A stretch of 64,000 bases of DNA from Isurus oxyrinchus. Taxonomy: Eukaryota. The position numbers and the translations under genes are program-made. Where the stretch lies: positions 5,952,001 through 6,016,000 of the forward strand of contig JANJGN010000034.1 in the NCBI GenBank assembly GCA_026770705.1. Direction: 5' to 3'. This document shows, in pieces, positions 170-29,400 of the stretch; the stretch's first letter is position 1, and every line of letters starts with the position of its first letter. A model generated the notes under the pieces. That model was given only the letters and a program-made list of their open reading frames with translations. It was not told the DNA's origin and ran no database searches.

Positions 170-199
170 AGTATTTTGACAATTCTTTAACACATCCGA

Positions 200-900
200 A
201 TGACACAAGGCATGGAGGTGCAGCAAACAAACAGGTTGATATTAAGCGACTGCAGCAAGAAAAAAATAGTTGAGCAGCATAAGCATCAAGTGGCGGATCA
301 AAAGTTATGCACATAAATATGAAGAGATGCTTTTTGGCAAAACCAATACAGGAAGGCAAATACCATTATTTCTGTGTGCAACTGAACAGATAAGGAGCAG
401 AATATTTTTGAAGTTGTCGTGAAATATTATAAGTGTACCTATCAAGTTATTCGGATTATTGGGCTTAATATGTGGAGGCGTTCAGCACAAAAGTTGAAAA
501 TTGTGCATAGCCTTTTGAAGCTCAAGTTATGCAGCAGTTAACGTTGTTGCATCAGGTTATCAACATATATTTGGAAGGAGCGACTGATCATAAAGAGGTT
601 GGTGAGGAGAATTGGCAGAATGGTTCCATGTACAAGTGAATTTAACGACCAAGGAACATTGGTCACGAACGTTTGTTTTCCATAGTGAATGGAAGGCTGC
701 GAGGTGATCCATAAGTTAATATCAAGGTTAGGGAAGGGAGAAAAAGAGATCCCGTTCCTGTATGCTTAAGGTACAGGGATGACGAGGACACAATTTTCCG
801 TTTTGTGCACGGGTGATTATAATATGTTGAAGATGTTATCTTTGCAAGCAATACTTACATGCCATGGACGAATAGATAAAAATATTTTTAAAAATTAGAA
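200..900 (+). mobile_element. Decayed CR1-type LINE 3' fragment
   Basis: Remnant resembling CR1 post-RT sequence (ctgcagcaaga...aagtggcggatc...gatgctttttgg); many stops; truncated homologue at ~56565-57010. Confidence 0.6.
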
Positions 901-5463: not shown

Positions 5464-5490
5464 AAAGAAATCTCGGGGAAAAAGATTCAG
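5464..5490 (+). CDS. Microexon A1, 27 nt (xRNLGEKDS)
   Basis: ttctcttgcag|AAAGAAATCTCGGGGAAAAAGATTCAG|gtaaac; homologues at 32651 and 58511. Confidence 0.85.
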
Positions 5491-8400
5491 GTAAACAAGA
5501 TAATGTATTCTGCACTGCCCTTTCGTGCCAATGTTGGCTCAGCCTGTAACGGTTTCAATATGAGCTTGGATCTCTTGTTTTCAAATGTAACTCGAAATCC
5601 TGATCACTAAGACTTGGCTGACACTGCTGGTTGTCAATAATGCAAGAGTGCCGACCTGCCAGGCCTGTCCTCACCAAGGCGAGATGCTAAAGGAAGATAA
5701 TAATTCCCCACACACCAAGGCATATTTCGATAAACATTTAAGAGTTGCCTCAAATGTATTGGTATGACTGACATTCAAATCAACAGTGATTCATACAGAA
5801 ACCGTGTTTCCTATTCAATTTCTACGTGTGAGAATTGTTGTTTCACTTCCTACATTACAGCAACAACTACAATTCGCAAGAGTCCAATATGGGAGGAAAA
5901 TTTATTTGACATTTTCTGAATTCATGGATGAAATGATATAAATCAAAGCCCTTCATTGTTCAGTTTCTGAAGGTATGCTAATGAGTCTCTTTGCGCTGGA
6001 ACTGTTCCGGCAGCAGTTAATGCTGTAATGAAAATTTTTTTGCAGAAAAACAAATGAAAAGGAATGATAAAATGTTCCTATGCTCATTTTCAGAAATAAA
6101 TGATCTCCAGACTAAACTTCAAAAATGCGGTAGGTATTTAAAATTTGGAAAACCGATGACCTAATTGGAAAAGAATTCGATTTTTACGTGGAAATTATAG
6201 AATTGAACTCATAGCAACGGATAGCCTCCGACACCCGGGGACACTGAATTGGATGAAGTGATTCTGAAAAGAGCCTGATTGAGTAAATGCTGGCAGGATT
6301 TCAGCATGCAGATCTTTAGCTGCTTCCTGAACTGTTGGTCACATTTCAGCAATGATCATTTATAAGATAAAATCTCGATCAGTGAGATTAGGAATATGTA
6401 AGATTGGGTACAGTTAATGTAGTTTTTTATTGCGTCGGCCACAACAATTAAGGCGTTGTGGAGAGTTCGGCTAGAGATGTGTTCAGATTTCTCAGCTCTC
6501 CGCACGTGTATCTACAGGTAAGGAGTACTGTGGGTGCGACAAGCTATAGCTTGAGTGCGTTCTGAGTGAGGTAGCCTTGAGGAGGCTGACTATAGCTGAG
6601 TCATGGAGAGAGATATCCGCTCTTTGTGTGGCCGGCTCTGGCTGAATTGGGAAATGGGTGTGTTTGGCTATGTGTGAGCCTGCTTCTATGTGTGATCCGC
6701 GATGATTCACATCCTGTATTTACTTTGTAATGATATGTGCTGGCCTTTATGCGTAAAACCATGTATCAGCGAGGTCGAATGCAGCTGAGCTTGAGGAAGC
6801 AGGACATCTGTATTATTCTGTGGAATCAACTTAGAGGTCCAATATGATCAGGGTTCATAGACTTAAGTCAGCTATGTGCGATTTTGTGTATCTTTGAGGT
6901 GTAGTATTTAAGTGTGTAACATCCTTTGGTGCGGAATGGCATAGGAAGCATAATTTTTATTTGAAGCCTAATTTGAATGAGGTCAAGCATATGCAATATG
7001 GATAAGTATGAGCTGATATAAATGAGATCAGATCGTATTGAGTTGGAGAAGTGGCAAGTTCAGCTTGGGATAATGTAGCCTATGGATGCAGTTGCACCTA
7101 TGAGAATTACGGTCATGTGGAATCAACTTTTCCCGAAAGATGATGTGAGTGAATTTTGTAATTGTCGATGTTCGGAATGGGTATGTTTGAGTACAGAGGA
7201 TATTGCTTTTGTTTCAGGATGCAGAAAATGAATTGGGCATTGGTAATTTATTGTATGTTTGAGGATGGTAGAGCTTAGTTTTGCAATAGTTACATCGCAT
7301 ACGGGATTGAGATCAGGTAGGAGTTATATCCTGTTTGTTTGGTGTTACGCACGAATGAGATACAGACTTTTCTCATTTATGATTGAACCTGTGGGGGCCC
7401 AGGCCGGGCAGAGGTCGGAAATGAATGTAGATTCTCCTAAAATATTCAGCAGGTGGGGCAATACTTCTGGAGAGAGGAACAAACGTTGAACTTTCAGGTA
7501 GGTGAGCCTTTCCAGCAGGCAGAAAGGGTCACATGGCACAAATTTTGTTAAAGCACAGGAGTGTCGTAGCCAGTATATATGGTTATCCAACAAAATAAAA
7601 GCAGGTTATCTGACCTTTGCAACATTGCGTTTTTGTGAGTGTTGGTAGGGGGCGGTGGGTGGGTTGGCTGTTAGGGGGAGGTGGTGGCTAATTGGCTGAT
7701 GTATCTCATACATTACGTTTTTGGTTACAATTAAAATATTTGTCATTGCGAAATGCTTTGGAATTGCTCTGGTTGTGACGTCAATGAACAAGCACAATGC
7801 TCTACTTAAATTAATACTTGCACACTATTTTAATTTTAATGGCGACATGCTTGCAACATTGAAGCTAAGGACTGGCTTAGCTACATTCAATGTTCACTAA
7901 ATAAAAATTTCCAACATGTGCGGGGCTTCAAATATTTCAGACTCAGTGATTTTATCTTTCACCCGTCGACAGAAGAGAACCTAAAAGCGATAGAGAAAGG
8001 TACTGAACTTAAGCACATCTTGCATTAAAGAGATGACAATTACTTTTGCATTTGATAATTGATTCTATCAGCCGTTCTCCAAAGCGTCTTATTATAAATT
8101 ATTTCAAAAGCAATCAACTGAGCAATCCTGCATGAAGCAGTTTGGCAGAATATATGTGGAGAAAATGATTCGTGGGAGGCATCAAACCCAGCGGATTCAT
8201 AAATAAAAGCATATAATGTAGTATGGTAACTCCAATATGGAATTCATGAACTTTATCTTTATACGGAGAATGTCCAACGTCCGCTATTTGGAAAATGTTG
8301 GAAGTGAATCAAGATAAATGCACGTGAGAAAAAGATTGAAAAGATGATATTAATAGCGTGAAAGGAAGTAGGGTGGAAGGAGTACCATGTGAAATATAAA

Positions 8401-11400
8401 TGCCAATGAGTGGAATGCCTGCCTAATGGCCTCTTTTGGCTCTGAAAATGCAGTATAATGATTCTATTTTGAGCGGTTTTAAATAGGTATTACTAAATTT
8501 ACCGGTCAATAGGCACTCGGCTGATTTACGCTTTTCCTGAATGTAACAGGGCATCGTGTAGGGTATTGAACGGGCAAAAGTTGCATATCACCCGTTTTAC
8601 TTCAGATTCCAAAGTTAGACATTCTCCTGCTGTTAGCTTTTTAGGAAGATTAAATACTTTTCTCAATTCAGAATAAAACAGGATATCTACTTTCTACAGA
8701 ATATTGGAATACGAACTTTGAATCCAAACCTCTAACTAACAAGAATGGCAAAAACTACTTCCACATACGTAGCACGGTTAACATAACAGAACATCGGCAA
8801 GTGCATCAAACTGTCGTATGAACACAACAATTGACACAAGTCCGCATAAGGATAATTTTGAACGCTTGGCAAAAACTTTGATCAAAGGGGCATTAAGAGC
8901 CATCTTAAAAGTGGAACAACGTGCAGCAGGGCATCGATTTGGAAATATTTACTGATTCCGTGATGCAGCAGCTGAAGTCAGTGTTGCAATATTGTAGCAA
9001 ATTAAATCAGTATGCTTCAAATGGCCAGAATTACATTTTGGAGTCCTCAGGTGCGGAAAGAGATTACACAGCTAATGATGATTGAGTCCATTGATAAATT
9101 TGGGACAAGAAGAATAAATTAGCTCTTTCAACCCAAAGCAACCCTTTTCCCTGGGACGTCTTGTATAGCTGTGGATTTGACTTGAATGACTAAAAAAGTA
9201 ATTTTCTGTATGTATTCATTTTATTGAATTGCATGAGGTTTGCTGCACTGCAACAGGACATTTGGTGCTGCAGGCCCAAGTTGACATGCCTTCTCTGCTC
9301 GGGGAGCATTGTATCCACTGACGTCGGATTGCAAATGGGTTAGAATTTAGAAATAGTGGAATTGATTCTAAATGTGCATAGAGACTTGGTTCAAAAAAGT
9401 ACAGAGATAACACATAGATATCGAAGCCAAAGATATGCACAAAAGAAGCTAGAAAAAATACAATGATGAAATGGGAACTATGAGGTCATAACCAATGGCA
9501 TCGAATGTGAAGACGCTGTTTCATTGGTGCACAAAGCAGACGATGATCTGCTGGTCCTGATAGCTCATCGGACCGATGAAAAAGTTTGGTAGTGTAAATG
9601 TAAAGAAAATTCTTCGACTTGCAAGGGAAGTGAGACAGCGTACTTCAAAGCAAAATTACCACTAATGCACCCTATCGTTCTTTTAGAGAACTTTCTTTAC
9701 ACAGTGAAAAATGACACTGTGGAATTCAGAACATCAGGGAGAAGTTGGAGCAATAGTATACGATCGTTAAAAATCACGGATGTGAATAAAATCATTGATA
9801 CAGAGAAAAGAGGAAAATTCAGCGCGTTGTGTCAGCTGTCTGCCCAAGCATCTCTTGCTAGCCCCACTCTCCATTCCTTGTTGCTCAGTAATTGCATCTC
9901 TTCAGATATTTAGCTAATTCCAATTTGAAAGCCATTACTGAATCTCCCTCCGCTAATTTATCTGGCATTGCATTGCAGATCTTAACAATTATTTTATTCC
10001 AAATAAATGTACTTCCTTTCTACACATCCTAATTTTATGTTCGCTTGTTCTTGACTCTTTTACCAACTGGAAAAGTAAACATACAAGCAGACTATCTAGG
10101 GGCAGGGTTAGTTCAGTCTCCCATTCAAGCTCTGCTATTCAGTGAGGCTGCGGGTAATGGTATTGTAACCTCCTGCCTGCGATGATAACCTTTACCCCCT
10201 TGTTATTCATGAATCTACCTAGCTCTGCCTTTACAATAACCAAAGACTCTGCTTTAAATGCCGTTTACGGAAGACAGCTTGGCCTTCTGTGAAGGAAACA
10301 TCTTCTCATCTCTGTTTGTAATGAGCGACGCCTTATTTTTAAATGGTAACTGTTAGTTCCAGATTCTCCCACAAGAGGAAATATCCTCTCCACATCCAGT
10401 AAGTCCATACCCCTCGGGACCTTTATTATTTTGATAAATTCACCTTTACCCTCTTAAACACAATTGGATAAAAGTCAAACTGTCCAACCATTCATCATAC
10501 GACAACTCGACAATTACTGGTAAAGGCCTACTAGACCTTCCCTTCACTGTTTCTAACGCATTTACAAATTTCCTGAAATAAACAGACGAATAAGACACTG
10601 CAGATAGGGGCTCACGGGTGGCCTATAGAAAATAAACTTTAACCTCCCTGCTTTTGAGTTAATTCCCGTCCCAATGAATGATTAAACTCTACAGCTTTCT
10701 TGATTAATTGTTGTGCCTGCATACTAGCCATTTGTGTTTCATGCACTAGGAAACCCATTTCCTTCCGAAACTCAGAGTTCTGCAACCTCTCACCATTTAG
10801 ATAATATGCTTTTATTTTCATAATCCCTGGCAAAAAGGACAATTTTGTCTTTTCCTACTTTATAATCTATTTGCCTGCTCTTTGCACGGTCAATTATCTA
10901 GCAATATCGCTTTATAGCCTCCTCACATTCTCCCCATAACTTGGCTACCTATCGATTTTTGTGTGGTCCGCAAAGTTAGCAACCACAAACCTATCTATGC
11001 AGTCTGTTTCAAAGCCTCATAGTTTGTACCCCTCTATGAAACCTCCTCTCAACCATCTCATCTTAAATTACAATACACCAGTTACTGAAATCTGCCTATT
11101 AAGTCCCTGAACCGTCATTCTTGTATCCGTTTTCAAAAATATGTTTGAAGATTTCAGACCATTCCAAATTATTTGTCTTTGTTTTGACCGTGCAGTTGAG
11201 TTATTGAAAAACCCCAGCCCAAAACTTATAACAACTGTCATAACCTATAATTTTGATTGATATGTTTAACATGCAACTTTAAATTCAGGAAAGAGACCCC
11301 TTGTTCTCGAAAGGTTTCATATTCAGCTAAATAAAACCTTTATTAATTTCCACAGGTTAAATATATGCAGATGGCTACTATTTGCTACGCTCATAACTTT

Positions 11401-14400
11401 TAACAAATTCCCAAACTAATACCCGTTAAGGCAACATGAACTGAAAGAATTAGCCAGGCAAAACAGTTTACGAATTGAAAATGAGGCTATTTTCACTTTG
11501 GGCGTTGTGGAGATAGTTGGACGGTTTCAGCTGCTTTTGATCTCATATTGCCTCTGCTCTACACAGAAAAAAAACTGCTCAAGTTATTCCTAGCATCGTT
11601 CATTGCACGTACATTCTTATTGAATCACTAGCCCCTTTGAACTCCAACTTTTAACAATAAAACACCTTTCGAAGAATGAATTTTATTGGTAATATAATCA
11701 TGTTGCTAGGTGTCTGTTGGCTAGGTGGTAGTTTTCACCTCACTTCTTGAATCTACCATCAAATGCAAATAAAGGCTCTTTATCTCACACATCAAAACTA
11801 CTACACATTAAAGCGCGCAGACTAGATGGCTTCAATCCAATTAAGACACACCCACAATCTAAATCTCTATTTTTGAAATAAAAATATTTACCAATAATAA
11901 TGTATATTTTAATAACTTCATGACAGTCACATTATTGGATACAATGCTCCAGTTGAGGCAGAACCAATGCTTTATAATTATTCATCTCAACATCCTTGAT
12001 TTTGTTCTCAATGCCTTCCTTTCTTAAATTCAGGATCCCATATACGTTCTTTAAAAATTCTTCATCATGTCTGCCCGTTTGAGCGATATGTTCACATAAA
12101 CCGGTATATCGCCACGTTGCTCAGGCCTTTTGATGTGTTACACTTTCGATTCCGTTACCTTCCATTGCTCTGCCGAACAAAATGTGCCAGCTCATGTATT
12201 TTTCCTTTTGAAATAGATTCACCTGCAATCTGCCTCTCCCTTCCACGAGTTGTCCTCTGGCGAAGAGGTGGAGCTGAAGTACACAAATCTGGAAAAAAAA
12301 AAATAGGGCGAACATAACATGAACGGAACTTATGTTAAAAATGAGTTTAAATGCATGCCCAGTAATGTGAAATAGTACAAGTAAGCTTTAGGCCACCAAT
12401 CGTGGGGTGGAATCATGCACATTCAGGATTACTGAGGCATGCCTAAAGTGCAATGCGGGCCAGGAAATTAACCTTGCTGTGTCTGCCGTATATAGAGAGG
12501 ATAGAAGTGGGGCCAAATACTATCTGTATTAGCTGTGCCTTTTCGAGATTCCATTCTATTTTGAAAGCAGACACAGCTATCTATAGCAGACATTTTGAAA
12601 ATTTGTACTTGGAGATAAGAGAGAAGAATGGTTCAGTCACAGAGACATGTCCTGTCTAAAATCCAGTTCGTGGTCTGCAGCTGGTGTGACAAAAATGTTG
12701 ACAAACAAGGAAACTGCATTAAAGAAAATAAAATAACAACATGACGAATTTCAATGGTCGTACTTACGAGTTTGGAGGACGATTAGGCCCATCGATCCTG
12801 CTCTCACTTTCAATTGGATGACGATAACTATGGCTGTGTCCTTAAGTCCACATTCTCGCCTATCCATGAAATCATTTTACCCGTTTGTTCGTCAATGATC
12901 TGTTTACATCTTTGTTCAAAACATAATAATCAACCACACTGCTTCCAGCATTTGCTGGGGGAGAGAGATCCAAAGACAAATAATGGTCTAAGATTCAAGC
13001 ACAGAATCTTCCCAACTTCGCCTCAAACTGGAGACACCTTAATTTTAATATTGACGTTAACAAGGAATGGTGAGTGGAGAAATGTGATAGGTGTTTTTAA
13101 AATAAGAACAGCGAATTCAATCGACCAAACAACAATGGAAGCTATAACCAGTGCCCAGAATCTATGGCATCTACATACTCTAAACGATTCTGGAGAAGAT
13201 ACATAAGTGGAAATATTACGCATATTTCATACCTTGTAAGAAAAATGATGCAACACCGGAATTCTGGTGGAAGTTTTCAGTAATTTCCATATTCAAGAAA
13301 GGGAAATAATATCTTTTTATAATTATAGGCCAGTCTTCTTAAAATCGGGGAAGGAAAATAATGGAATAGCTATTCAATAAGGTTATAGAAGAACAACTAT
13401 CATGGTTAACATGATTCAAACACGCAGATACACACAGCAACAGATATAACATGTGGATATATGTTTTTGTACAAATGGATGGACATAATGTGATGTAGTG
13501 CCCAGTTTTTGAAATGGTCTTGAATAAGCTTTTCCAGAGTGCATCAATGAATGAGGTGTGATAACGTGGAGTCAGGTAACAAGTAACGGAATGGAATGTT
13601 CTAACTGGCTCAAGACGTAAAACAGAGACTGAGAGTAATGTTGGGTTATTTAGAGTGGCAGAAGGTGAACGTGGTTCTCCGCAAGGATATTTGCTATCTC
13701 CACTGATATTTAATATTCTGTTTAATGACTTTGATTGCGGTGTCAGAAAATCAATTTCTAAATATGTGGCGTTCAGCAAAATGGGGAGAATGTCAAAACA
13801 GAGGTGCATTGCAATAAGTTGCACGAAGACTTTGTTAAACTTGGAGAAAGGACAAACAATTGAAAATTAACTCGAATACAGATTTGTGTAAAACATTACC
13901 TTCTGGTAGGAAGCATACTTGTTTTTTTTAAAACGTGAAAGTCTAGGTAGAATGAAGGAAATTAGGGGTCCCGGTCTTAGAAAGCAGCAATCGCTAAAAA
14001 TTTATTCGCTGGTGAGTGGTTAACAAAAGCAAAACAATCACGAGACTTTGTTTCTACGGGATGTAATTTAACTTGCTAACATTATGCGGAAACTAGAAAT
14101 GCATTGGGAATCCCGCAACAAATTGTCTTTACCTAACTGAATAGCATAGATGCATTAAAGAGGAAGCTAGAAAAATATATCAGTGAAAAGATGATAGAGG
14201 CTTCAATGATAAATTTAGATGAGGAAATATAGAAGGAATTTCAAGTGAATCTTTAGCGCTTGATGGGCTGAAATATTACTTTCTATGATGTTCATCCTAA
14301 GCATAACTGCTTTAAATTAAATAACCTAATTCATAATTAAAGAAGGCCGAATAATCAACTACTGTTACTATTTCGAATGTTTATAGCTGTGTAGAGTTAG

Positions 14401-17400
14401 TTAATTAAATTCATGACAGAAACAGCAGGTGTGTAAGCAAAAAAATATATATATCTGCAATAGGTTACAATGACTGGCAATTTTTTCAGTCATTTGAATA
14501 CAACCAAATGAACTGAATAATCCTGCTCATTCCAACGGGACTGGTGGGAGAATTGTTAAATTCATCGCCATCTAAGATGTCATTGCGGTGTTAATTTCTA
14601 GACCCTTTCTGCACAAAGCCCGATGTGATAATTTCACATTGATCCTGTCGAACATTGTGTTTCGTCTGAAAAAAATGTGTTCATGCTTTACTTTTCCTTA
14701 GAGCTCTATGACCTTCAGCAAAAGTGCAGTAAGTATTAGCTACTGTGTTGATTTATTATTTATTTCTGACGATTAATTTTGACTTCCTGAGCATGCATTT
14801 TTGTGCTGCCGTCCCATTGTACTTCAGGAATCGTGGGCTAGAAATCCCCCAAGAACCATCCCGCAATCAATGCTACAAAGTTTCACATTCGGAAGTTCTT
14901 GCATTGAGTTCAAGAAGTTAAAAAGTTTGCATTCTGACAGAGTCAATGCAATTGAATTATTTAAATCACCAAGAGATGTTCTGAGAGATGTTAAACATGC
15001 TGTGCAATTGACACCCGTCTCCCTTTAAATATAAATGTTGAAGTACAGTTGTTTTGCAGATACAAGGGTTGAGTGGCAAGAAGCGGGATTCGTCACTGGC
15101 GTCCCATGATACACTCGGTCAATTTTCATATTATCTATAATCGATGTGGTTGACCCTGCAGAGATATCAGAACACTACCCTACCAAAAAACTCGTCCCAT
15201 TTAAATGTCATCTCTGTGTTGCCCCTCGCTGGACTAGAATAGAAAGGGATCTGCAACTTGGCAGGGTAAATTTGAAAGTGGACATTTTACTTTTCCAGGC
15301 ATACATTTGCATAGCGGTCTATGAAGGAAGGCAGATCATGAAAAGCAGATTCCTGCTGCTTTCATATTTCCCAACTGACTATTTGCAAATATGTTTTGAA
15401 TGCACACTTCTAGTAATATAAATAGAGTATAAGAACCATTGGAGAATATGCTGTAAGCATTAAAAGTCCTATCAGAAACGAGATGGTTCTGAACTTCTTA
15501 AGATTCGGCACTGTGAATAATATTGACCTCATGGCAGCGGGTGGGAAGAGGGCATAAACAGTGAATTAGTATGATAGTCTGGAACACATTAAAAATGTTT
15601 TAAATAAATGCACCTTCACTTATTGTGAAATTCGAGCATGAATTTTCTCACTGCAGGCAATAGTCTTATCTGATAAATACATGCATGTAAAGGGGAATGA
15701 TGTAAAAAACATATAAACTGAATTATTCATATGGTGAAATAGAGACTGGCAGAAAGAGGCCCATCTGATTGCTTAACACTGATATTGTGCATTTGAGCTG
15801 ACTGTCCTGCTTATATAATGTTGCTAATTCTACATAACTCTAGAACGCATATATTCCAGAAATGCTATCCCTTTTAGCACATTTTTTGTTACTCCCAATC
15901 ACTCCGACACCACCCTCCGTCCCCTCATCCTTCTTCCCTCAACCATAATGTGGTTGTGGAATCAAAATTCCTCCAGGCCGGAGAGGCGATGGCCAGTTGT
16001 TCCTTGCTTGTTGGTCCTGCCCAAAATACGCATTACATGGACTGTCATAACTCGCCCTGCCGCGGTTAAAATCATCTTCTGCTAATGAGTATAACAACTC
16101 AGCCACAGTATGCCGTCCTTTAGCGTCATGTGTCAATAACAGGCCAATGATTGAACCATTCCTGTAACTCTTGCAGAAGCTGATCTCGACCAAAAAGATG
16201 AGGGTAAAGTACAACATCAAACATGCAGTAAATTGTTCCCATTGCATTTACTACTTGTTGCATGTAAGGAAAATAGTTGAATTTAATGACAGTGGACACA
16301 GTATCCAGATCAATCACTTGTTGCCTGGGAGGTTGTTGCAACCTAGTTCTGGATCAGAGGCCTCAGCATAAAATTTCAGCAAACACTACGAGTGAAAGTT
16401 TACGTGGCGATACTGCCCAGTCGAAGGGTGACAATTTCAAGTGAAGTATTAAACCGCAATCAGTCAACGATCCCATGGAATTGCCATAAGCAGCGAACAG
16501 ACAAAATATCCAGAAAATAAAGCGACACAAAATGAATTGGCCCTGTTGTGTCTCAGCACTATATAACTCTGAAGGATCATTGCAAGGACATTATCAGTAA
16601 AATATCGCTTACAGGTTTTTGGGAGCTCGCTCTGTGTAAAATAACTCTTGCGTTGTTTGTATTATTAGCTTGAATGCTTTTCCAAATGTGGGTCATGCGA
16701 TGTCACATGTCCTGAGAATGTGACAGGCACCTCAACAATTTTCACACACACCTGAAATGAAACAAGAATGGCTGATGTGCCAGCATGCCAACTGTAATAA
16801 CAGCCTAATTCAGGCGAGGTCTGAGGGAAAATATTGTTATTTCACTGCTTAAATGACATTCCACTTGTTTCTTTTACAAAAATGCAAGAATTCGGCAAGA
16901 AAATTGGAGAATTAGGTGAGTAATGGGAAAAAGAAGATTTGGAAACATTGCTCGTTTTTGGGGTTCATTCTGAACTTTTGTTTGCTTTCCTCATGGCAAA
17001 TGGGATGTTTTAGACAAAGATTAATAGGAAACCTAGTCTAACGTTAATTCCTTTCATGTGTCTGTCAATGTCAGTGAAAGGGCCAACGGTGCCAATCATG
17101 GTGCTGTCCAGTAGAATTCAGATTAACCCACTTTGAGAGCACATATTATCAACTCGTGTATGGTGAGAACAAGTATTAGTGCCACGCGGTTTTTGTGGAA
17201 GGTCAGTTTTGAGGAAGGGTGGAGAGGGCGGTGTTGTATATCGATAAGCTTAGATGTGTTTGATGGTAAGTGCTACTGATCTGAGTCAGAAATAAATTAG
17301 ATCTGGTGAGGAGCGATCGGATTTTGCTCAAATGAAATATGCGTTTCAACATTTGTTTGTGGTCAGCTTTTAATGGGGTCAAGTTTTATTTTGATGAGTA

Positions 17401-20400
17401 TATCATTTGCTATCAGCATGGCTAAAAATAACCTCCTTTATTGCCTATCCTAATTGTCTTTGAAATGGCCGTCTTGCCATAACCACAGCCAATTACAGGA
17501 GATATGCTTGCCTGAAATGAAAAGTTGGTATTGATTATATGTTCCTTTACGGAGAGTAGCTTTCAATTCCATATTAATTAATTGAATTTAAATTCTACAA
17601 ACTGACATGCTTGAACCCATGTCTCAGCGCATTTCTCGGAGGAGAATCAAAAGTTAGAAGACCCAGTTTCAAAATAATGAATCTTCCAGTTAAGACAGAA
17701 TGTTCCCTTCACTGAGTCATTAATACTGCAAGCAAAACAGTGGACAGTGCAGGCTTTGGAATTGAATGATTTATCAGACCGCATGTTAACCTACGAGGCA
17801 ATTAATTCTTTTGGGGATGATAATGATGCAAAAACAAAGAACTGCTGAGGTTGGGAATCAGATATGAAACAGAAAATGCTGGTAAAACGTAGCTGGTCTG
17901 GGAGCATCTGTGAATAGAGAAAGGATGGGGAACTTTTCGAGTACATACAGCTCTTCTTCAAAGCTGGTTATGGAGATAATTCAATGAAGTGGATTTAAGG
18001 CACAACCAGATTAGTTATATTCTTGTGGAATGGAGGGGAAGGTAAGAGGGGCCAAATGACCTAATTCTAATATATTTTCTTACGTTTTTACGTTGTTAAT
18101 GGGCGACATCACGATTTGACCTTTGTCAAAAATGCACATAGAGGAAGTCTGTTCCATCCAGTGGATTGAGAATTATGAATGCCTAGTTGCAATCACAGGT
18201 ATCTCAGAGTTTTACTCGCTTATCCAGACTGCTGAAAACATTGTTTTCTTTTGGGGAAAAAGCACAGTAAATGAAGGGTAAAGACCTTAAAGTTTACTTT
18301 TGTTAGGATATCAATAACAGGAGCGACCAGTCAATGATCAACAATAAAAGGAAGAGAGAGTTGTGAACTTTGCTATAGGATGTCTGATACCGAAATGCAG
18401 ATCACTTTTGTTATGCTCAATGACATTTTACATCCTATAATTTTTCAATTGTTTTTGTTTCCTTTACCGATTCACAGAAAATGTAAAGAAAGGTATGTAT
18501 ACATCTGTTACAGATACTCTCCTTTCAAGCAACATAAATAGGGTGCCCTAAAATTTCCTCCTGTTGAGTATCTTGCCTGATGTCGAATATAGAGTTTTTT
18601 TTCCCTTTTTCACGTCCCTCTGTGAGATCCCCCCTCCCCTTCCGTGTAACCTCCCACAGCTCAAAAATTGTTTTCATTCCAACTAATTTGCTTCCTTGAT
18701 TTCCGATTTAGTGCTTTCCCAGGCACGCCTCTACACTTTTAAGACGTTGCCTAAAAATGTGCATCAGAGTTGTCAGTGTTCATACCTTCATAATATCTCT
18801 CAACCTATTCGTTGTGGTTCTGTTACTATTTGTTCCATTCTGATGCATGTTTCTGCCTTCTTCGTCGTTGTCTGTTTAGTAAACATATATTATCCTTTTC
18901 AGCCAAATCCGAGAAAGGCTAATATCGCATAAAGGTCCCCAGGAGATTTTGGAGTCGTGTGAACATGAGCCAGGATGTGGCCTCTTCCAAAAGCGTAACT
19001 TTTTAAGAGAACCTGGAAGGCTGATAAAACACACACCTGTTGGACGTAAAGACTCATGTTTTCTTCCCTCCACCTTGCAGAGCTAGACTCCTGCCAAGAT
19101 ACCGTAAAAGATTTAGGTGAGCCAATCAGTTTTGATGCCTGCTGAATTTCCAGGACGTTAGCTTTACTCTTAAAACAATCAAAGCTCCAAGTTTTTCTGA
19201 AGCACAACGGAAAAAGAACGATCCTGGAGCATTAATCCGTTCTGTTTTTAAAGATGGTGAACTTTAAAGCAATGGTAGATTTGTTCTGTTTGGGGAGCTG
19301 AACCGTCAGTCAAAGTGTTTTCGTGCAAATCTCGGTCAGATTTTTGGCAAGTGATTTTATGGATTGTTCATTGTTCAGAAGGGTTCACGTAGATTATATA
19401 AATAGAACATGGATATGATGTAGCACCAGTTGCTGGGATTCCATTGACAGACTGATGTAGTGTCACGTGTGTTCAGTTGCACTGACTAAAATGGAAGTAA
19501 ATATTTGGGGTGGGTGTATAATCTTCCCTTTCTACGAAATTGCACATTTTGCTTGGCTGCCTAAAATTTATATTCATTGTGTAGAGCTTGATTAATGAGA
19601 ATGATATACCCAAATTGTACCGAATCAGCACTCGCCGTCACATTTCACCAATTTTAATTGTTGTTGACTTCAAGGTTATTAAAAAAACGCCATGTATTTT
19701 TTTCACGGAAAGGACGATCAAAAGAACGATCTTTTGAACGTCGGAATGTTGCTTCATTTACGTTATCTCCATGCTCCATAGTGTGCAATTCCACCCGATA
19801 GCGCCACTGCGTGGTAAAGAGGAAAACTTCACCATTCATTATCGTTTGCGCAATAAGAAATGTAGCAAGTTGACGGCTAGCAGTGAATAAATGCCTGTTG
19901 TCAACTTTCCATGAGTAGTTCCATAGAATTTTCAACGTGTTCCACGTGCTCAAAGAGAGTTAGGTTTGGCCTGCACTGTCGGCCACATGCAGATTAGCTT
20001 GATTTTCAGTGAATACTCTTCCGTGGTAGGTCATACATTCGTTCATTTTGCAAATTTTTCTTGATTTGTTTCATAGATAAATTTAAAAAAGGTAAGTGGA
20101 AATATGCTCAAGCACCTGACAGTCTAAGCGGGTGAAAAGAAAGACGAGAAAAGATGTATTCACAGTGATTACACATTCCGATTTAAAGTAACCTTTAAAT
20201 TGTCATTATTATATCTAAATCCCTCTTTGGCCTGGCCCTTCCAAATTGCCTTGAGAATCGTTTGGCTTTAAAACTGGCTACACGTTTTTTGTTCACACAA
20301 CGCTGGACTCTTTCTGATCGAGCTGTTCCTTCACCTTTCCAATGGCGCTTTCTGGCTTCTGCAATATGTCCCAAGGCTCTGCAGCATGTTTGCCAAATAT

Positions 20401-23400
20401 TGAACCTCAAACTCTCGTTCCTCATTTAACATTCACATGTATCCTGGGCTGTATCAAAGTCCATCCCTCGTTCTCACACCGGATTCTGGCCAATAATTAA
20501 AGTTTCGTTCAAAACATGGTGAAATGCAGCGAGGTTCCATACGCCTGGTGGCTCTTCAGTTATCGAGAAGGTCTACTAGGAAACTTAGAAATACTCAGCA
20601 GACTTTGCGCAGGCTTACAGGTCCTCAGAACAAATAACGGAATACCTGGCATCTTGAACAACTCAATGGCTCTTCTAGTGAACGAAGGCTGCAACAGAAC
20701 TAAATATCCAAACGTTTTAGTTTTGTGCCATTGGATCGAGGTGTCGTTCTCTAAAGACAGGCGTGGAATTTGGTGTGCAACTGTTTCTACATCCTAAAAT
20801 TTTGCCCGCACAGGCATCTTTCTTTCCAATGCCGTCTACCATGCCGTCAGGTGTCCAGCGAATGATGGAGGGAGCATTGTTGTGTTGTATCAAAGAGATC
20901 ACTTGAAATATGCTTGTACTGAATTTGGTCAATTGAAAAAGCGACCATTCTAATTTTGCAACACCAAAACTGACAGGAAGCTCATGATCTGTTAATTGGG
21001 TTTGATTTCCAGCTTACTCTGCAAGGCCAAAGCTGCATGATGGAAAACATACAGGAAGCAAGTCAGGGCACTTGTGTCATACCGTTAAAAGTGGCTGCGA
21101 AATGAATTGTTTATTAGTGGGAAGGCAGACAGGTGGACACTGTGAGCTGTTAGGTATCAAACACCCAAAACAGTTATTGTTGTCCAAGATTAGCGAAGAC
21201 GGACTCACCAGAGGGGGGCAGAGGGCAATCTTAAGGGATGTGCTGAAAAGCAACATGAAGAAAATGAATTATTCACATCAACATCTCGGTGAACACAGTT
21301 TATAGATTATACCAAAAGTCACCTGGCCCAATAGGAAGGACTCCAACAGTTTGAAAACGAACAACTATAAAATGATTCAGTAAAACAGGAGGGGCCAAAG
21401 GAAAACAACATGACTCGAATGAAGAATACACGACCTGGCACCCAAAGGGGCATAGGAGCATGATGTTTGCAGGTCCCTCAGTTGCCTCATCAGCCCTCTC
21501 AGGCTCATGGAAGAGAATCGTCCCTCGCTAGTGAGGCATAGCCAGCAATAACATTATCTGAAAGCAATTAATCACATTTCCCAATGTGGCCACATGTTGC
21601 ATCACCTCCAGTTTTGTCGAAACTGTTCGCGTGGAAACAATTTTGGTGCTTTTGTGGATTAAGTCACTATATTAATGCTAACTGTCCTTTCCTGTCAACA
21701 GTCTACTTTCAATCCCTACCAGCAAAGTTTCTGCCGACAATTCTGAGGAAACAGTTGCTGGCAGGGCGACTACTTGCGTGTTCTTAAGTACCGTTAAGCA
21801 AGTAGGAGGAAACCATGTTTCCCGAAGAGAAATTAAACATTTGTGACATAATCAAAGAATATAGCTTGTCACAGATCGGTTACGGAACAGAATGAGGCCA
21901 TCGGGATTTTCGCATTGGAGGCGGGGCTCTGAGTGATTATCTCGGCTGTTCCCATGTTCCATACCTTCACCTGCAAGGCATGCAACTTTCTTGCTATTCA
22001 AAGAATTACCCAGTTCGCTATTGTCAGCCACGATTTTCCCTTCGCCGAGGTCATTCTTAGACATTGCATTTAAGAACCTAATGACGCGCTTCACGTTTAT
22101 TTTCCCCATGTCCCCATTGGTTCTCTTTCAGTTGACATTAAATCAATGTCTTCCAGTTCTTGACCATTCCAAATGGGAATAGTTTCGGTGTGCATAACAT
22201 GTCCAAACCCCGTCGTGAATGTGAGAAGCCCCATCAAATCTACTTTCAAACATTTTGTATTTTTGTATAACCAATCAAATTCTCGAATCCTTCCTCCTCG
22301 AAGAAACAATCACCTCTGGAAACATTCCCATGAATAAACTCACTACCTTCTCTAACGACTTCACTTCTCCCTTAACTATAAAGTCCAAAATATGGTACAA
22401 GTCCCTAGTGGAAGTCGAGCTACAGGTTAAACAGGTTTACCATAATTTCCTTTCTTTGGCTGCCTATTCATCTATTTATAAAGCCGAAGATTTCATATGG
22501 CTAAGTGACAGCGTTTTCAATCTGCCCTGCATCTTGCAAATATTTGTCATCTTATACTCTGAAAGCCCTATGAGCAGCTTCAATCCATTTTGGAATGCTT
22601 TCACAAGTTGTTATAACCTCCCCCTACTGAAATGAATCACTTCATGCCTCTCTCTATTAATTTCATCTTCAATAGCTACTCCAACTCTCCATCAGCGTCT
22701 GTTTTACGTATTTCACGATTTCCATGCAATTCATAGCCCTGTAAAATCTAAAAAATGAAAATCTGATTATGTTGCACTGGACAGTCATGTTTAGGTCATT
22801 CATGCATACCATGTGGATAGATTGGAAGGGGGAAACTGCGTATATTTTCTTGACACTTCAGTGTGAATCATCCATATTATGAATTTCAGAGCTAAGCGAC
22901 TGTCAACAAGCTGTTAAAGACCTAGGTGAGCAAAATATTCCTGGTGTCGCTTTCAGTAACATGCCTTATTATTTTGAACGATTCAGCAAATATGTTTATA
23001 TTCTTTAAAAAAAGAAGTCAACAATTGAGCCACCAATTGTTTAGCGATAGGCCCACATTCGCTTGTGTGATTTCAAAAAAAGAAAAAACTGGGCAGAGAG
23101 GAAAACAAGCCGACCATACGACAGTGGGCAGGATTATTTTCCGATGCTCCGTGCATCATGATTATTGGTGTGTTTTGTCACAACTGTTGCTCAATCCTCC
23201 ACACTAACGGAATGATGAATATTGTTAAAATTATCGATTTTGCACCACATTGGAAAAGTATTCTAACCAGTAACGAAACTCGTCCCAATAGTGGAAAAAT
23301 GTTGTTTAATCTTAGATTTTTTTGTTTTTTTTTACCATGTAATCCCAAACAGAAGAAAAACTCAACTCAAAAGACAAAGGTACCTGATCTGACATTTTTT

Positions 23401-26400
23401 TTCCTCAAAAAGCTAGAGATTGACAATGGCTGATTGATTCTTTTTCATGATTTGTTATGCTTTCTTATGACTGTTTTATGTTTGTTTTTTACTAAGCTGA
23501 TTGCTAGAATGTATGTTAAGTGTTTGCAGCAAAAGACTCCTATACAGAGGGTTCCATAGTTTCGAGTTACGAGGGCACATTTTCGGATTCTGTGTCAGAC
23601 AAAGTTGGAAGACAATAAGTAACGTGAACTAATTAACTGAAAAAGGAATTCACTTAATGCTTCTTAAACAAGGTAGTGGTAACAACGAAGTCCCCGCTAG
23701 CACAGTGAATTTGGACATAAAACGTATGTGGTGGTTAAGAATGACAGTTTTGATGAAAGAGTTTATGAAGGATTCCTTATAACGCTGTCCTGGTGCCACA
23801 ACCTTTGGCCAGAAGCTCTGTGTTCAAGCCTCACTTCAGGATTTGTTGGCTGTTGAAGCTGTTTCCGTAAGTTGGCAGGCTGTATTGGTAACCATCTTGT
23901 AAATCGTTGCAATGCACCTGGCAGCAGGTGCTAAGAACTTCACAAATGCTGTCCAGTCAGACTGCAGAAAACAACGTGAAATGACTGTCGTACTTTGCCA
24001 AGAATAATCATGGCTATATCCAGTGGAAATGCATGATCACCAAGAATGCAAGTTACCTGAAAACTAGGAGTAAAATAATGTATGTGGTGAGTTGTTCTGG
24101 TGGAGGATAGGATTAGGGATGGGACACTTTATTGGACGGACATGTATTTTTCTCTAAATTATATGCGTTGGATTACCCTGTCGGTATCGAATTCCATAGA
24201 ATTAAATGTTTTTTTGAATTGCAACTCACTACAAATTCGTAAGAAAAAAAAATGAGCGCCCTCTTTTGCTGATCGATGACGTGCCTAATCACCTTGCATC
24301 TACTTAAATAATGTAATTGAACAATCGTTAACGAGAAGAACTTGGCAAAGTCCCACAGAAAAAAGAAAATCTGCAAAAGCATTTGATTCCACGGTTGTGT
24401 AAATTAATTTGCAAACAGAAGCACGGTGAATGTTACTAGTTTAGACTTACCGTGCCGTTATAGATTGAATTATGGAACTATTTCTTAAGCATGCATAACC
24501 TGCAAGTAAAATATCATAAAGCATGCCATGCAACCTTAGGATGGCCGTCTCGAGGAGATTCAATGTATGTCTGTTTGTTACTGCCCAACCTGTAGTCAAG
24601 TGAGTTTACCGAAGCCAGTCTTGCACTTTTTGCTACTGCAACCCCAGCACTCTGCTCTTTGTTAAAATGCAGTACGAAATGGCGGCCCAGATTAGACCTT
24701 GTATTTTTATGAATATGATACAAGGTTCAGCTGAGGTAAATATCCTGCCGTTATTTATGGGGAAGTTAAGTAGGTGCTACAGGAGGAAGTGAGCGAGAGT
24801 ACATATGACAAAAATGAGAAGGAGTATGTTGAAATATGGAGCGTGTGGAAGGACATAATCCACTTTGTCGAATACATTGATCTGTACAGAAATTCTGCAT
24901 AGTAAATCGGGAGGGTGGTTGGGAGGGACAGGGGGAAATGTACTAAAATTTAAATTGTGTTGTAACTCTCACATCTCACCATTTTAGAGATTATAAAGTG
25001 CCAAGAGTCTTTAAAGGATTCAGGTGGGAAATATATTTGGTATTTGTGTAAATTAGCCACCGCATAAAATATTCCTGCAATTCCTAGGCCACACGTAGAA
25101 TACAGAAATGCTGGTCAGTAATTTTACATGTACAATGTAAATTTTGCCTGCGTCATATAGTTGCCCAGCAAAGAAAGAGGGCAAACCCCCAGCATTCCTG
25201 TAACTGAGAAAGGAAACAGTTTTATTCCTCTCCATTTCTCTCTCTCTCTCATTATTTGCGTTCCAAAAATCTTTTCATACAACCTTCCAGACGCTTGCTC
25301 TGCACAATAAGGTGTTGTTCCCCCCCAAACCCCTCCACCACACCCTATTATTTTTCTATGAATAAACATAAATCTGCATTTCTTTGTTGTTGGTCATCCT
25401 GGACGTGAAAACGATTTATTGTTATTTAATTTCTCAAGAATGATGGTCTCAGCATGTTGGCGTAATTGCCAAAGAGTCTATTAACCTTCTTACCGTGATC
25501 AGAAAAATCTCACCTCCCGTCTGCTGTCTATATGTCTGACGACCTTGATACTGTCGAAAAATCTTCCCTGTGCTCCCAACATGCTATGTGAATCATTGCA
25601 AAGCATGTGCGCCGAATTTGAATACAATATCCTAAAGTGGCGCATATTAAAGAACAATCATTGGGCAGCTGCATGGAGTGTCGAAATCAGCAGTGAGTTC
25701 TTCGTGAATTATTAATCCCAACTAATGCGAGGTCCTGTTACCTGAGCTGGGCATTTGGCTGGGCATGGAATGGACGTCCACTGTGAAAGGGCCAGTTTCA
25801 TGGTACAGTCGAGGGTCATTATTTGCCTCAATATGTAGCATCATCTACATTACTGTGTTATGTGCAGATTTATTCACACACTAGCATGCTTGATATAGCA
25901 ACTTTTAAAATTTTCAATCTACCTGCAAACTTGTGCCTTATCAAATAAAACGTCAATTGCTTCAATGATTCCACAATCTTCCTGTTAACGTCATGCCTTG
26001 ACAGAAACAAAGCTGAAAGGCAAAGAAAAAGGTAGCCAGTTTAATGATTCACTGCTTTAAAAAGACAGATATTAACGTCTTTGGAATATATCTATCTGCC
26101 GTTTGTTTCATGATTAACTTCTCTCAATTAGCATTTAGCATTAATCGGAAGATCGGTTGAATTATGTAACGGCCTATATGAGGGGAAATTCTTTCAGCTT
26201 GAGGTCGCAGCCAATATTGAGAGCCACTAAGATCAGAGATTAACATTAATACAATCTAACACTCAGGAGGAAAGTATTGATTTAGAAAACGATTAGAATG
26301 TGGAATTTTCTGCTGCATTATCCTTTCTTACACGGAATTTCCCTGCATTTTTATAAAGCTGGGGACACCGACATCCCACCAATGTTCAATCGACATGACT

Positions 26401-29400
26401 CTCAAGGAGTAAATGTCGTGTTATCCCCACGAAAATTTTAGTTCAGCATTGTCACCTCCAGATTAATGGCTCCTAAGCATTTTAAAGCAAGTTTAACGCG
26501 TGCTTGCAGTTTGGCTTAAAGGCAATTATATCCAAAATGTGGCGATGGCTTCCCTTGAATTCATGTTCAGACTTTGGGTCTTGACTTCAGAAGGAAACAT
26601 TTTGATCTCCAAATATCGAAACTGTGTTCCTTCTGGTGGTTTGCAGTCATTTCAAGGGGCCTTTTGTAATAGACATTTCTCGGCACATTCTCTGTCAGCC
26701 AACGAGCTGAATGGCGTGCGAGCTTAAAGAAATGCTGTGTAGCAAATGCTGTGCAGTTCATGCACTAAATAGCAACTCAAACTGATCATTCTTAGCAGAA
26801 AATTAAAGAGGAGTCTCTCAAATCTGCATATAGAGGCTATGTAAACAACAACTACACACACACAACATTTTGCCTAATTAAACAAAGGCACTACGAATTA
26901 CACAAAACATTTCTAGCTTAACATGAATTTAAAATTCTCCAACAAAGAAAATTCACGAATGAAACCATGCCAATGTCTCTTGTAAAACGCAAAAGTTCAT
27001 CACCAATTAAATGCAGTTAGTGGAGGAGAGTCAAATAATTCCACCTGCATTCGCCTATTCAAAATCAGTCTCTAACAGCAGTGTAGGTTACAGACACGAT
27101 TGTTAAGATGATTACCGGGCAAGTTTGATTGCTGTCGGGGAATTCCGGGATACAAAATGCAGCTCTTCTGTTATCTGGACGAGTAAATTTAACTGATAAC
27201 CTTGACAATGCCATGATCCTTGTAAACCAGTTGCTTTATTTCTGTCTTAGAATTGAATGACATTGCGCTGAAGTGCAGTGAGTATTCCACGAGTCAGCAG
27301 CCACCAAGGTGTAGATTTCCCGATTGATTACGAAGCCTGTACTGCAGAAAAAATATATCCGTGTACAAAACGTGTGCCTTGTGGGACAAAATGTTTTCGA
27401 CTGATTGCATTAAAGCACATCCCCAACGTATGCAGAGAAAATGTCTGAAAGGAAATTGCTTTGTAATCTTCTTCCCTCAATCTGCGCTGAATGTTTTGTC
27501 CTCGCAGCTTCCCGCATTTTAGCTGTGACTCAGTAGACAAAACTTCTGACTTGTGGTCAGAAGGTTGCGAATTCAAGTCTAGAGTTAGAAGTTGAGCACA
27601 GGCGCAGATGCTGACACACCACAAGCAATGTATTGCAGGAAGTTTGGCCGTTTAGTCCAAAAAAACAGCAGATGTCTGCCCTCGAACTTGGACGTAAATG
27701 ACCCAATGTCACATTTGAAAGAAACAAAAGAAGTTTTCAACCACTATCCTGGTGAATAGTTACTGCTTAATTAAACCTCACATAAGAAGCGTGTTTCGGT
27801 GGTTTTGGGTTCCCTGGTGAGACAAGCGGAACAAGTATCTGTGCCAAAACAGTTCATTCAGAGTGTTCATTTTATCACCAGCTTTTTGTTGGCAGGTGGA
27901 TCGGATGGATAATTGACAGATGCGGTCTTGCCCAGAAAATTATGATCAAATTATTTTGGTAGGAAGGACGAGGCGAGGCAATGCAAGAGAAAGTTTGAAT
28001 ATATAAATGGGTTTTGGGGCATTAACTCCTGGATGTCAATGTGCACAAAATGCTCAGGGTGACAAGGCAGGTAGAATGGGCGGTTAAAAAAAAAACATAA
28101 ACGGTCCGTAAACTTAATAAAGAGGGTCATATAGCACAAAGACATGTAATTTATAATAAATGTATTACATACTGCGTGGGCCTCAACTAGAGAATTGTTT
28201 CCAATTCTGAACAACATTCTCCGGGATAATGTGTAGGCATTATCGAGCCTGCAAAAGTAATTTTGAAAATTAATTCAAGGGATGAAGTGCTGCACTGACG
28301 TGGGTAGTTTGGATCGTATTCTTCACCTTGGTGAACAGAATGTTAAGGAACTCATTAATAGAGGTGAACGTAATCATTAGGATCGAAGAGAGAAAAAAAC
28401 ACGGGGGAGTTTGTCCATTGGCTGGAACTGTTGAAATTGAGTGGAGACCGAGTTAAGGTAATTGGCATCATAAATAGTGGTGCCATGAGGGAGACGTTTT
28501 CTTTCCCAGTGAGTTTTTAGCACTTGGATTACACTGCTAACGGTGTCGAAGAAGTATGTGGTATGACTGTTTTCAACAGTGTATTAAATAATTATACCAT
28601 GAAGAGAGTTACTTCAGAGGATTGTTACTCGGAAAAGCGGGACAGAGGCATGAAAGTAAATTAAGAGAGAGATCCGGCCTGCTGCTGGGGCGTGTGTTCA
28701 TGAAAGTATCGGTAGCAGTGACCAGCGCACAGTCTTTGTGGAGACATTGGGGATACCATCTAATGTGTGGTGCCACACCACCAAAGTGCCAAAGTGGATA
28801 AATTAGGAACAGATCAAGGATGTCAATCCCAGGGAGCCACGAGGTTATGTGGTCCATCCGCAGAAGCAGTACTGCACTCAATCAAATATTCAACCTCATG
28901 GACCAGCATATCCTCATGGACGAGCTTGGGTATCCAGACTGGGTCAATAAAGAGTGCAAGGGGGCATTCCAGGAGCCGTACCATGCATGCCTAAAATCGA
29001 AGTGGCAACTGGGTGAAGCGACATACCGGATCTACTTGGGTGCCAGACATCATAAGCAGCACGTGATAGACAGAGCTAAGCTATTGCAGATCCAACAGCG
29101 CAGATCTAAGCTGTGCAGCGCTGTGACAGCCAGTTTTTAATTGTGGTGTGCAATTAAATCATTTAGCTTAAATAGATCCACAAATAACTCCATGCTTCTT
29201 GATGATAGAGTGCCAAGCATCGTGGCAAAATATAAGGCTCAGACATTTGCATAAAGCGTCGAGTGGGTGACCCATGTCTGCCCCCTCCAGAGATACCTGA
29301 TATTGCAGGTGCCAGCCTTCCACAAATTCTATTTGCCCCACGTGATATCATGAAATGGTTGAATGAACTGGATTCAGCAAAGACAAAAACAGAATTACCT

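Follow-up and report, generated by a model that had tools for sequence, protein, structure and literature searches.

Butyrophilins (BTN/BTNL) carry small symmetric phase-1 heptad exons ahead of a terminal B30.2 exon, according to the accessible part of PMC4046983. The coiled coil of chicken BG and of the BG zipper protein is assembled from micro-exons, with the register offset from the exon edge and a split first codon; as described in the available part of PMC5938342, BG has 13-38 exons of 21 nucleotides (nt; rarely 18 or 24), an Ig-V domain, a membrane helix and outward-facing Cys residues. In tetherin (BST-2), a dimeric coiled coil is held by inter-chain disulfides which resist unwinding (bioRxiv 10.1101/160242, accessible portion). 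Here we describe a locus of the shark Isurus oxyrinchus which bears a likeness to each of these systems. The window, i.e. the whole stretch of 64,000 nt analysed (assembly GCA_026770705.1, contig JANJGN010000034.1, hereafter C34, positions 5,952,001 to 6,016,000 of the forward strand), contains a unit of 14 micro-exons encoding 130 amino acids (aa). This unit recurs in the middle of a giant gene made of micro-exons, whose predicted product is a coiled-coil rod of two parallel chains. What is new in this analysis is that, with the coiled-coil register read from the exon boundaries to which it is locked, Cys proves to be confined almost entirely to the d position of the heptad. No paper on this family was found in the literature searched, which did not extend to subscription journals or supplements.

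Exon length, heptad register and cysteine placement

The unit occupies positions 5464-27277 of the window on the + strand; its exons, of 27, 36, 27, 27, 27, 27, 15, 36, 15, 36, 27, 36, 27 and 27 nt (390 nt), are all of phase 1-1 and bounded by AG/GT. A splice-site scan of the window for micro-exons of the family type (27, 36 and 15 nt) gave 35 candidates on the + strand and five on the - strand. An earlier note on this DNA, made from the letters alone, had assigned the unit to 6094..27277 and named 37 core residues with 3/4 spacing. Translation of the 14 exons reproduces all 37, and the exons of that span hold; its start does not, since L4 and K7 come from the exon at 5464-5490, before 6094. 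The 3/4 pattern likewise stands, although the core is not hydrophobic at five of the 37 sites, which are polar (K7, K46, K98, K119 and S112).

The exon classes differ in where their hydrophobic residues fall. Residues 2, 5, 9 and 12 of the 36-nt exons are hydrophobic in 87, 53, 78 and 35% of cases, respectively. In one type of 27-nt exon (A-type) residue 4 is hydrophobic and the d at residue 7 is assigned by spacing only; in the other (B-type), as in the 21-nt exons, residue 2 is hydrophobic. Residue 7 of the A-type exons is mainly Lys (54%) or Cys (19 of 95 exons), and Lys makes up 21% of all d sites. The exons of the unit are as follows.

5464..5490, + strand: unit exon 1, 27 nt, A-type; a at residue 4, d at 7; encodes unit residues 1-9
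6094..6129, + strand: unit exon 2, 36 nt; a2 d5 a9 d12; C21 at d
7973..7999, + strand: unit exon 3, 27 nt, A-type
14702..14728, + strand: unit exon 4, 27 nt, B-type; C39 at the first stutter
16177..16203, + strand: unit exon 5, 27 nt, A-type
16889..16915, + strand: unit exon 6, 27 nt, B-type; exons 6 and 7 together encode 14 aa, no net shift
18478..18492, + strand: unit exon 7, 15 nt
19081..19116, + strand: unit exon 8, 36 nt; C67 at d
20077..20091, + strand: unit exon 9, 15 nt; produces the one stammer of the unit
22890..22925, + strand: unit exon 10, 36 nt; C84 at d
23353..23379, + strand: unit exon 11, 27 nt, A-type
24988..25023, + strand: unit exon 12, 36 nt; C105 at d
26005..26031, + strand: unit exon 13, 27 nt, A-type
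27251..27277, + strand: unit exon 14, 27 nt, B-type; C130 at the second stutter

Across the gene, the gap from one a position to the next is 7 or 11 at 199 of 234 scored junctions (those with 15-nt or unclassified exons being excluded), compared with 49 +/- 3% (maximum 60%) in 5,000 shuffles of exon order; the proposal that exon lengths fix the coiled-coil register is thereby upheld. The a/d anchors have fixed places within each exon, such that 36+27 nt or 21 nt keeps the heptad, a B-type 27-nt exon followed by an A-type exon inserts a stutter, and the order 36-15-36 inserts a stammer. The register arithmetic of the earlier note is sound in general and breaks down at exons 6 and 7 (27+15 nt), which encode two plain heptads with K53 at d, so that the stutter and stammer there cancel. 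Counted parsimoniously, the unit comprises 17 heptads with two stutters and a single stammer.

The hydrophobic period of the unit shows a Fourier peak at 3.514 (130/37; 76 times the mean power), and the hydrophobic score is 0.70 for an unbroken heptad frame versus 0.84 for the segmented path. With a net period of 3.514 the overall left-handed supercoil stays near canonical, and most of the gene is built of the heptad-keeping 36+27 or 21-nt exons. The suggestion that the supercoil is set by exon size is thus right locally but not overall: exon size positions points of local unwinding and overwinding, not the overall pitch.

The six Cys residues of the unit (21, 39, 67, 84, 105 and 130), which are the only ones in its translation, had been noted to lie on the core face of the coiled coil. 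This is borne out, specifically for d: C21, C67, C84 and C105 are d residues, with C39 and C130 located at stutters. With a single copy of the array counted (288 exons; 20 that could not be classified being left out) and register taken from exon position, Cys accounts for 77 of the 370 residues at d, 4 of the 370 at a, 3 of the 28 at stutter sites and 9 of the 1,880 elsewhere, eight of these last nine being position 6 of stutter exons. Cys makes up 21% of d residues, versus 16% for Ala, Thr and Ser together; it is present in three separate d columns, and in a columns to no real degree. A count made independently of register classes 60 of 97 Cys residues as d-like and one as a-like, with a Cys content of 3.4%; for 35 TRIM coiled coils the content is 1.0%, with 5 of 50 Cys d-like and 3 of 50 a-like. 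Neighbouring d positions constitute a disulfide-ready pair in parallel coiled coils (PMC6146289), and a d-d' disulfide has been observed in CREB3 (PMC6423718), according to the accessible parts of these two papers. The Cys residues of the unit are spaced 17-28 residues apart, one per layer, which leaves only two ligands per dimer and bears on metal binding.

A chimaera relative, P0162 (XP_042192744.1), which with P0236 falls in the B30.2 subclade of this gene (88/89), has the same Cys pattern: of its 22 Cys residues, 13 are preceded at -3, and 17 followed at +4, by a hydrophobic residue. Modelled as two copies, its residues 380-520 gave a score of 0.43 versus 0.00 for the best control. The model is a parallel, in-register dimer with i-to-i contacts, a predicted local distance difference test (pLDDT) value of at least 82 and at least 91% contact agreement between runs, and C402, C444, C465 and C477 are positioned in the dimer interface. 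Among microbial structures the mark used for such scores is attained by 21 of 30 solved pairs and by none of 23 single chains; among eukaryotic ones, by 17 of 29 pairs (7 of 16 for animals, and only 1 of 7 where no older solved relative exists) and by none of 30 single chains. The P0162 model supports, rather than demonstrates, the d-d' geometry of a parallel dimer, and from this fragment of a relative a parallel in-register dimer is predicted for the rod.

The giant gene and its tandem array

The gene was examined over C34:4.80-6.49 Mb, using a micro-exon model trained on the + strand. Micro-exons scoring at least 10 number 386 on the + strand versus 11 on the - strand; a score of at least 9, together with the mapped array, gives 414 micro-exons (215 of 27 nt, 146 of 36, 27 of 21 and 26 of 15) and a gene model of 4,006 aa with one junction stop, which probably reflects a false or missed exon. 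The window belongs to the family gene ending at 6.396 Mb. The predicted terminal exon is large (C34:6,395,8xx-6,396,336) and of the B30.2/SPRY type, with 92% identity to the last exon of the downstream paralog, 58% to that of the upstream paralog and 50% to relative P0001; the terminal exons of both neighbouring paralogs match Pfam SPRY (PF00622) above cut-off. Only one B30.2 exon is present between 4.82 and 6.49 Mb, and since it is the sole one after 4.817 Mb the gene spans about 1.5 Mb. B30.2 exons at 2.709 (-), 3.474 (-), 4.816 (+), 6.396 (+) and 7.496 Mb (+) of C34 represent five family genes in one cluster. If the gene is spliced as modelled, its exon number (about 414) exceeds that of titin, which has 363 exons, and the discontinuities of the coiled coil map one-to-one onto exon lengths, so that the mechanics of stutters and stammers could be probed one exon at a time.

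The window consists of an internal tandem duplication that repeats every 25-28 kb at 75-83% identity. Beyond the unit described above it contains two further copies, one of them partial.

32651..54833, + strand: next complete 14-exon copy; C39 replaced by Phe; DNA 77-82% like the first copy
58511..61047, + strand: exons 1-3 of a third copy, which runs on beyond the window end

A DNA search with unit exon 8 found 16 copies in two clusters on C34, the first of which was mapped as nine complete and two partial tandem units of 25-30 kb (140 exons, 3,900 nt of exon). Across the nine complete copies identity is 90.5% in exons, 94.4% at donors and 78% in nearby intron, and the ratio of non-synonymous to synonymous substitution (dN/dS) in the array is 0.51 overall and 0.24 for Cys codons; the array is shown to be under purifying selection. 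C21, C67, C84 and C105 are kept in all nine copies and C39 and C130 in eight, and Cys occurs at no other site.

It is very improbable that the array is not one translated gene, but the source of several shorter transcripts or a decaying duplicated locus with a Cys pattern that simply goes back to a small number of ancestral exons. The lengths of most database relatives (170-460 aa) and a dN/dS of 0.51, which is only moderate, would both fit such a locus. However, at about 9% coding divergence none of the 140 array exons is disrupted or carries a stop and every boundary is AG/GT, and the 1.5-Mb gene has a single B30.2 exon. A chimaera model of 1,697 aa has the same design, and between the isoforms P0231/P0232, P0238/P0122 and P0234/P0104 (ray, catshark and chimaera) there is in each case a difference of exactly 9 aa, equivalent to one 27-nt exon. 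As whole exons are symmetric, their duplication or skipping can alter rod length without a break of frame.

At C34:7.06-7.13 Mb the downstream paralog has amplified other blocks of these exons, chiefly exons 10-13; this block, of 126 nt, is exactly six heptads, and the alternation of exon types is preserved at block junctions. TC and ATAG microsatellites are present at window positions 56264-56524, near the end of a block resembling window positions 178-629. Between two family genes, at C34:6,416,001 (positions 1-582), two stop-separated frames give weak 7tm_1 matches below cut-off, probably a pseudogene fragment of a G-protein-coupled receptor.

Termini and likely location of the rod

Our preferred explanation, in which belief and doubt are evenly balanced, is a secreted, disulfide-stapled two-chain rod with a B30.2 tip. 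Disulfides between d and d', one to about three heptads, would likely link the chains, and the rod, which likely enters the secretory path, would carry two B30.2 binding domains at the C-terminal tip. The rise of a coiled coil is 0.15 nm per residue, which for 4,006 aa would give a rod of about 0.6 micrometre; its role would be to act as a long, rigid spacer holding out a binding tip with two B30.2 heads. The broader proposal is made more tentatively, with doubt somewhat outweighing belief: that cartilaginous fish secrete a 0.6-micrometre rod with up to about 150 inter-chain disulfides and paired B30.2 tips, in which more than 400 symmetric micro-exons act as a structural code of heptads, stutters and stammers and blocks are duplicated or skipped to retune length. 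A secreted, stapled rod would, if real, represent a novel type of extracellular fibre or of long-range tether, with B30.2 outside the cell on a giant stalk.

The terminal exons had been suggested as a guide to topology; the 3' end is defined, by the B30.2 exon, but at the 5' end the first coding exon was not found, no candidate being conserved across paralogs. Within the 5' regions of the gene and of the downstream paralog, 146 open frames of at least 75 aa contained no Ig, RING or B-box Pfam match, although edge-cut frames could escape this search, and no phase-1 exon with a 17-aa hydrophobic window, as sought for a membrane exon, was found there. The 5'-most exon conserved with the upstream paralog, of 111 nt, opens with eight mostly hydrophobic codons, which differ from those of the upstream paralog chiefly at third positions; this conserved opening hints at an upstream coding exon. 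Three of the seven relatives with an N-terminal part (P0162, P0236 and P0159) open with a short hydrophobic stretch, and none of the three has a membrane segment further on.

The missing first coding exon weighs against a secreted, stapled rod, as do a number of other observations. The downstream paralog is without the 241-kb block that holds the 111-nt exon, and four of the seven relatives (P0016, P0104, P0110 and P0122) lack a hydrophobic start. Reading into introns yields ends that resemble signal peptides (a score of at least 2.7 for 4 of the 67 exons preceded by an in-frame ATG), and the hydrophobic ends of P0159 and P0236 stop exactly where a micro-exon would begin and may be such read-in; that of P0162 does not stop there, but it is followed by a basic cluster, which would also be compatible with a membrane anchor on a cytosolic rod. 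N-glycan sequons show no enrichment (11 vs 8.8 +/- 2.7), and B30.2 domains are normally cytosolic. Fisher's test for Cys at d versus a gives p = 3e-20, a value which overstates the case because the exons are duplicates and the Cys counts are not independent. Non-Cys core positions are conserved no better than surface positions (0.90 vs 0.89, with dN/dS of 0.60 vs 0.47), and the only structure modelled is a dimer of a relative's fragment. The cytosolic protein CEP135, moreover, likewise has a Cys at a d site (PMC6146289, accessible part).

A cytosolic rod, resembling a detached and greatly lengthened butyrophilin/BG tail in which the Cys residues are reduced, serving either as small side chains of the core or for redox chemistry or acylation, and the ligand of B30.2 is cytosolic, has to be considered, but we judge it unlikely. 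The gene ends in B30.2, and in the available portion of PMC4046983 BTN tails are described as cytoplasmic heptads with B30.2 and the BG zipper protein as a soluble tail; BG tails also have cytoplasmic Cys (PMC5938342, available portion). The absence of a detected signal exon, here and in the four relatives named above, is consistent with this explanation. However, the same portion of PMC5938342 places the conserved Cys of BG among outward-facing residues, whereas here Cys is at d. A cytosolic rod would also leave unexplained the 19:1 bias of Cys for d over a and the 3.4-fold excess of Cys over TRIM coils.

We regard as rather more unlikely an intracellular structural filament, made in the cytosol and stapled later, on oxidation at terminal differentiation. 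Hair keratins and sperm tail fibres are oxidised in this manner, and such a filament would fit both the d-site Cys and the failure to find a signal exon; yet the B30.2 tip, which is conserved (92% between the two newest paralogs), would be needless for a purely structural fibre.

Several first-exon candidates were rejected. The signal-like frame at C34:4,840,063 is embedded in repeat-like sequence, which we take, from a motif, to be a remnant of a long interspersed nuclear element, and the ATG and donor of this frame are lost in the downstream paralog. A hydrophobic frame of the upstream paralog (4,009,863) is not conserved here, the donor at 4,834,603 and a 30-nt exon at 4,846,528 are kept in just two of three paralogs, and the donor at 4,848,607, the only one kept in all three, looks non-coding; tblastn searches with the N-termini of relatives returned noise only. 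An ATC-rich stretch is conserved upstream of the three paralogs (C34:4,833,500-4,833,700, 6,439,332 and 3,994,447); it is hydrophobic when read on the + strand and Asp-rich on the - strand, with no conserved + donor. The 241-kb block itself corresponds to C34:4,850,373-5,091,193, and in the downstream paralog, where it is missing, the upstream DNA passes directly into 21-nt exons.

Comparison with known systems

The closest named relatives of the gene come from sharks, a skate, a ray and chimaera, and their database models are mostly short, with TRIM, A33 or unrelated names. A scan of the genome for the PRY family gave 150 matches, none of them on C34, and a search for longer proteins with one B30.2 exon as query found none. 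In the ESM Atlas, a P0236 query returned SPRY clusters and a P0162 rod query nothing at 0.8 or above. One Atlas cluster comprises 137 long SPRY proteins (representative of 1,579 aa, score 0.84) and, as a lead only, may be a similar rod family.

The exon design of the shark gene resembles the BTN/BG tail and its Cys placement resembles tetherin; tests of membership placed it with neither. TRIM proteins also combine a coiled coil with B30.2. Unlike them, the shark gene yielded no RING or B-box in the search described above, and TRIM coils, with 1% Cys, lack the d bias; the full-length shark TRIM P0056, compared with the 1.69 Mb, matches B30.2 exons only. Vespryns (ohanin) are B30.2 proteins found outside cells (PMC12730704, accessible part) and so provide, as a venom case, a precedent for a secreted B30.2; they are short and without a long rod, unlike the predicted shark product.

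With tetherin the shark gene shares core Cys residues in a parallel dimer, the dimer being predicted for a relative only, and its inter-chain bonds are putative. Tetherin has three disulfides in a short, doubly anchored ectodomain, whereas the shark gene has about 150 Cys over about 4,000 aa and a B30.2 C-terminus, with no anchors found; the likeness is one of Cys placement, and homology is not claimed.

Butyrophilins have few small exons, in contrast to the approximately 414 micro-exons here, where no Ig or membrane exon was found. The B30.2 domain of the shark gene, moreover, lies outside the BTN group, in a separate 15-row clade of cartilaginous fish (100/100) apart from both the BTN and TRIM rows, in a tree of 32 rows hand-picked from about 240 stored proteins and rooted at the midpoint only. 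Compared with chicken BG, finally, only 27 of the 414 shark exons are of 21 nt; the gene uses exons of 15, 21, 27 and 36 nt, which add stutters and stammers to the heptad pattern, places its Cys residues at d, and ends in B30.2.

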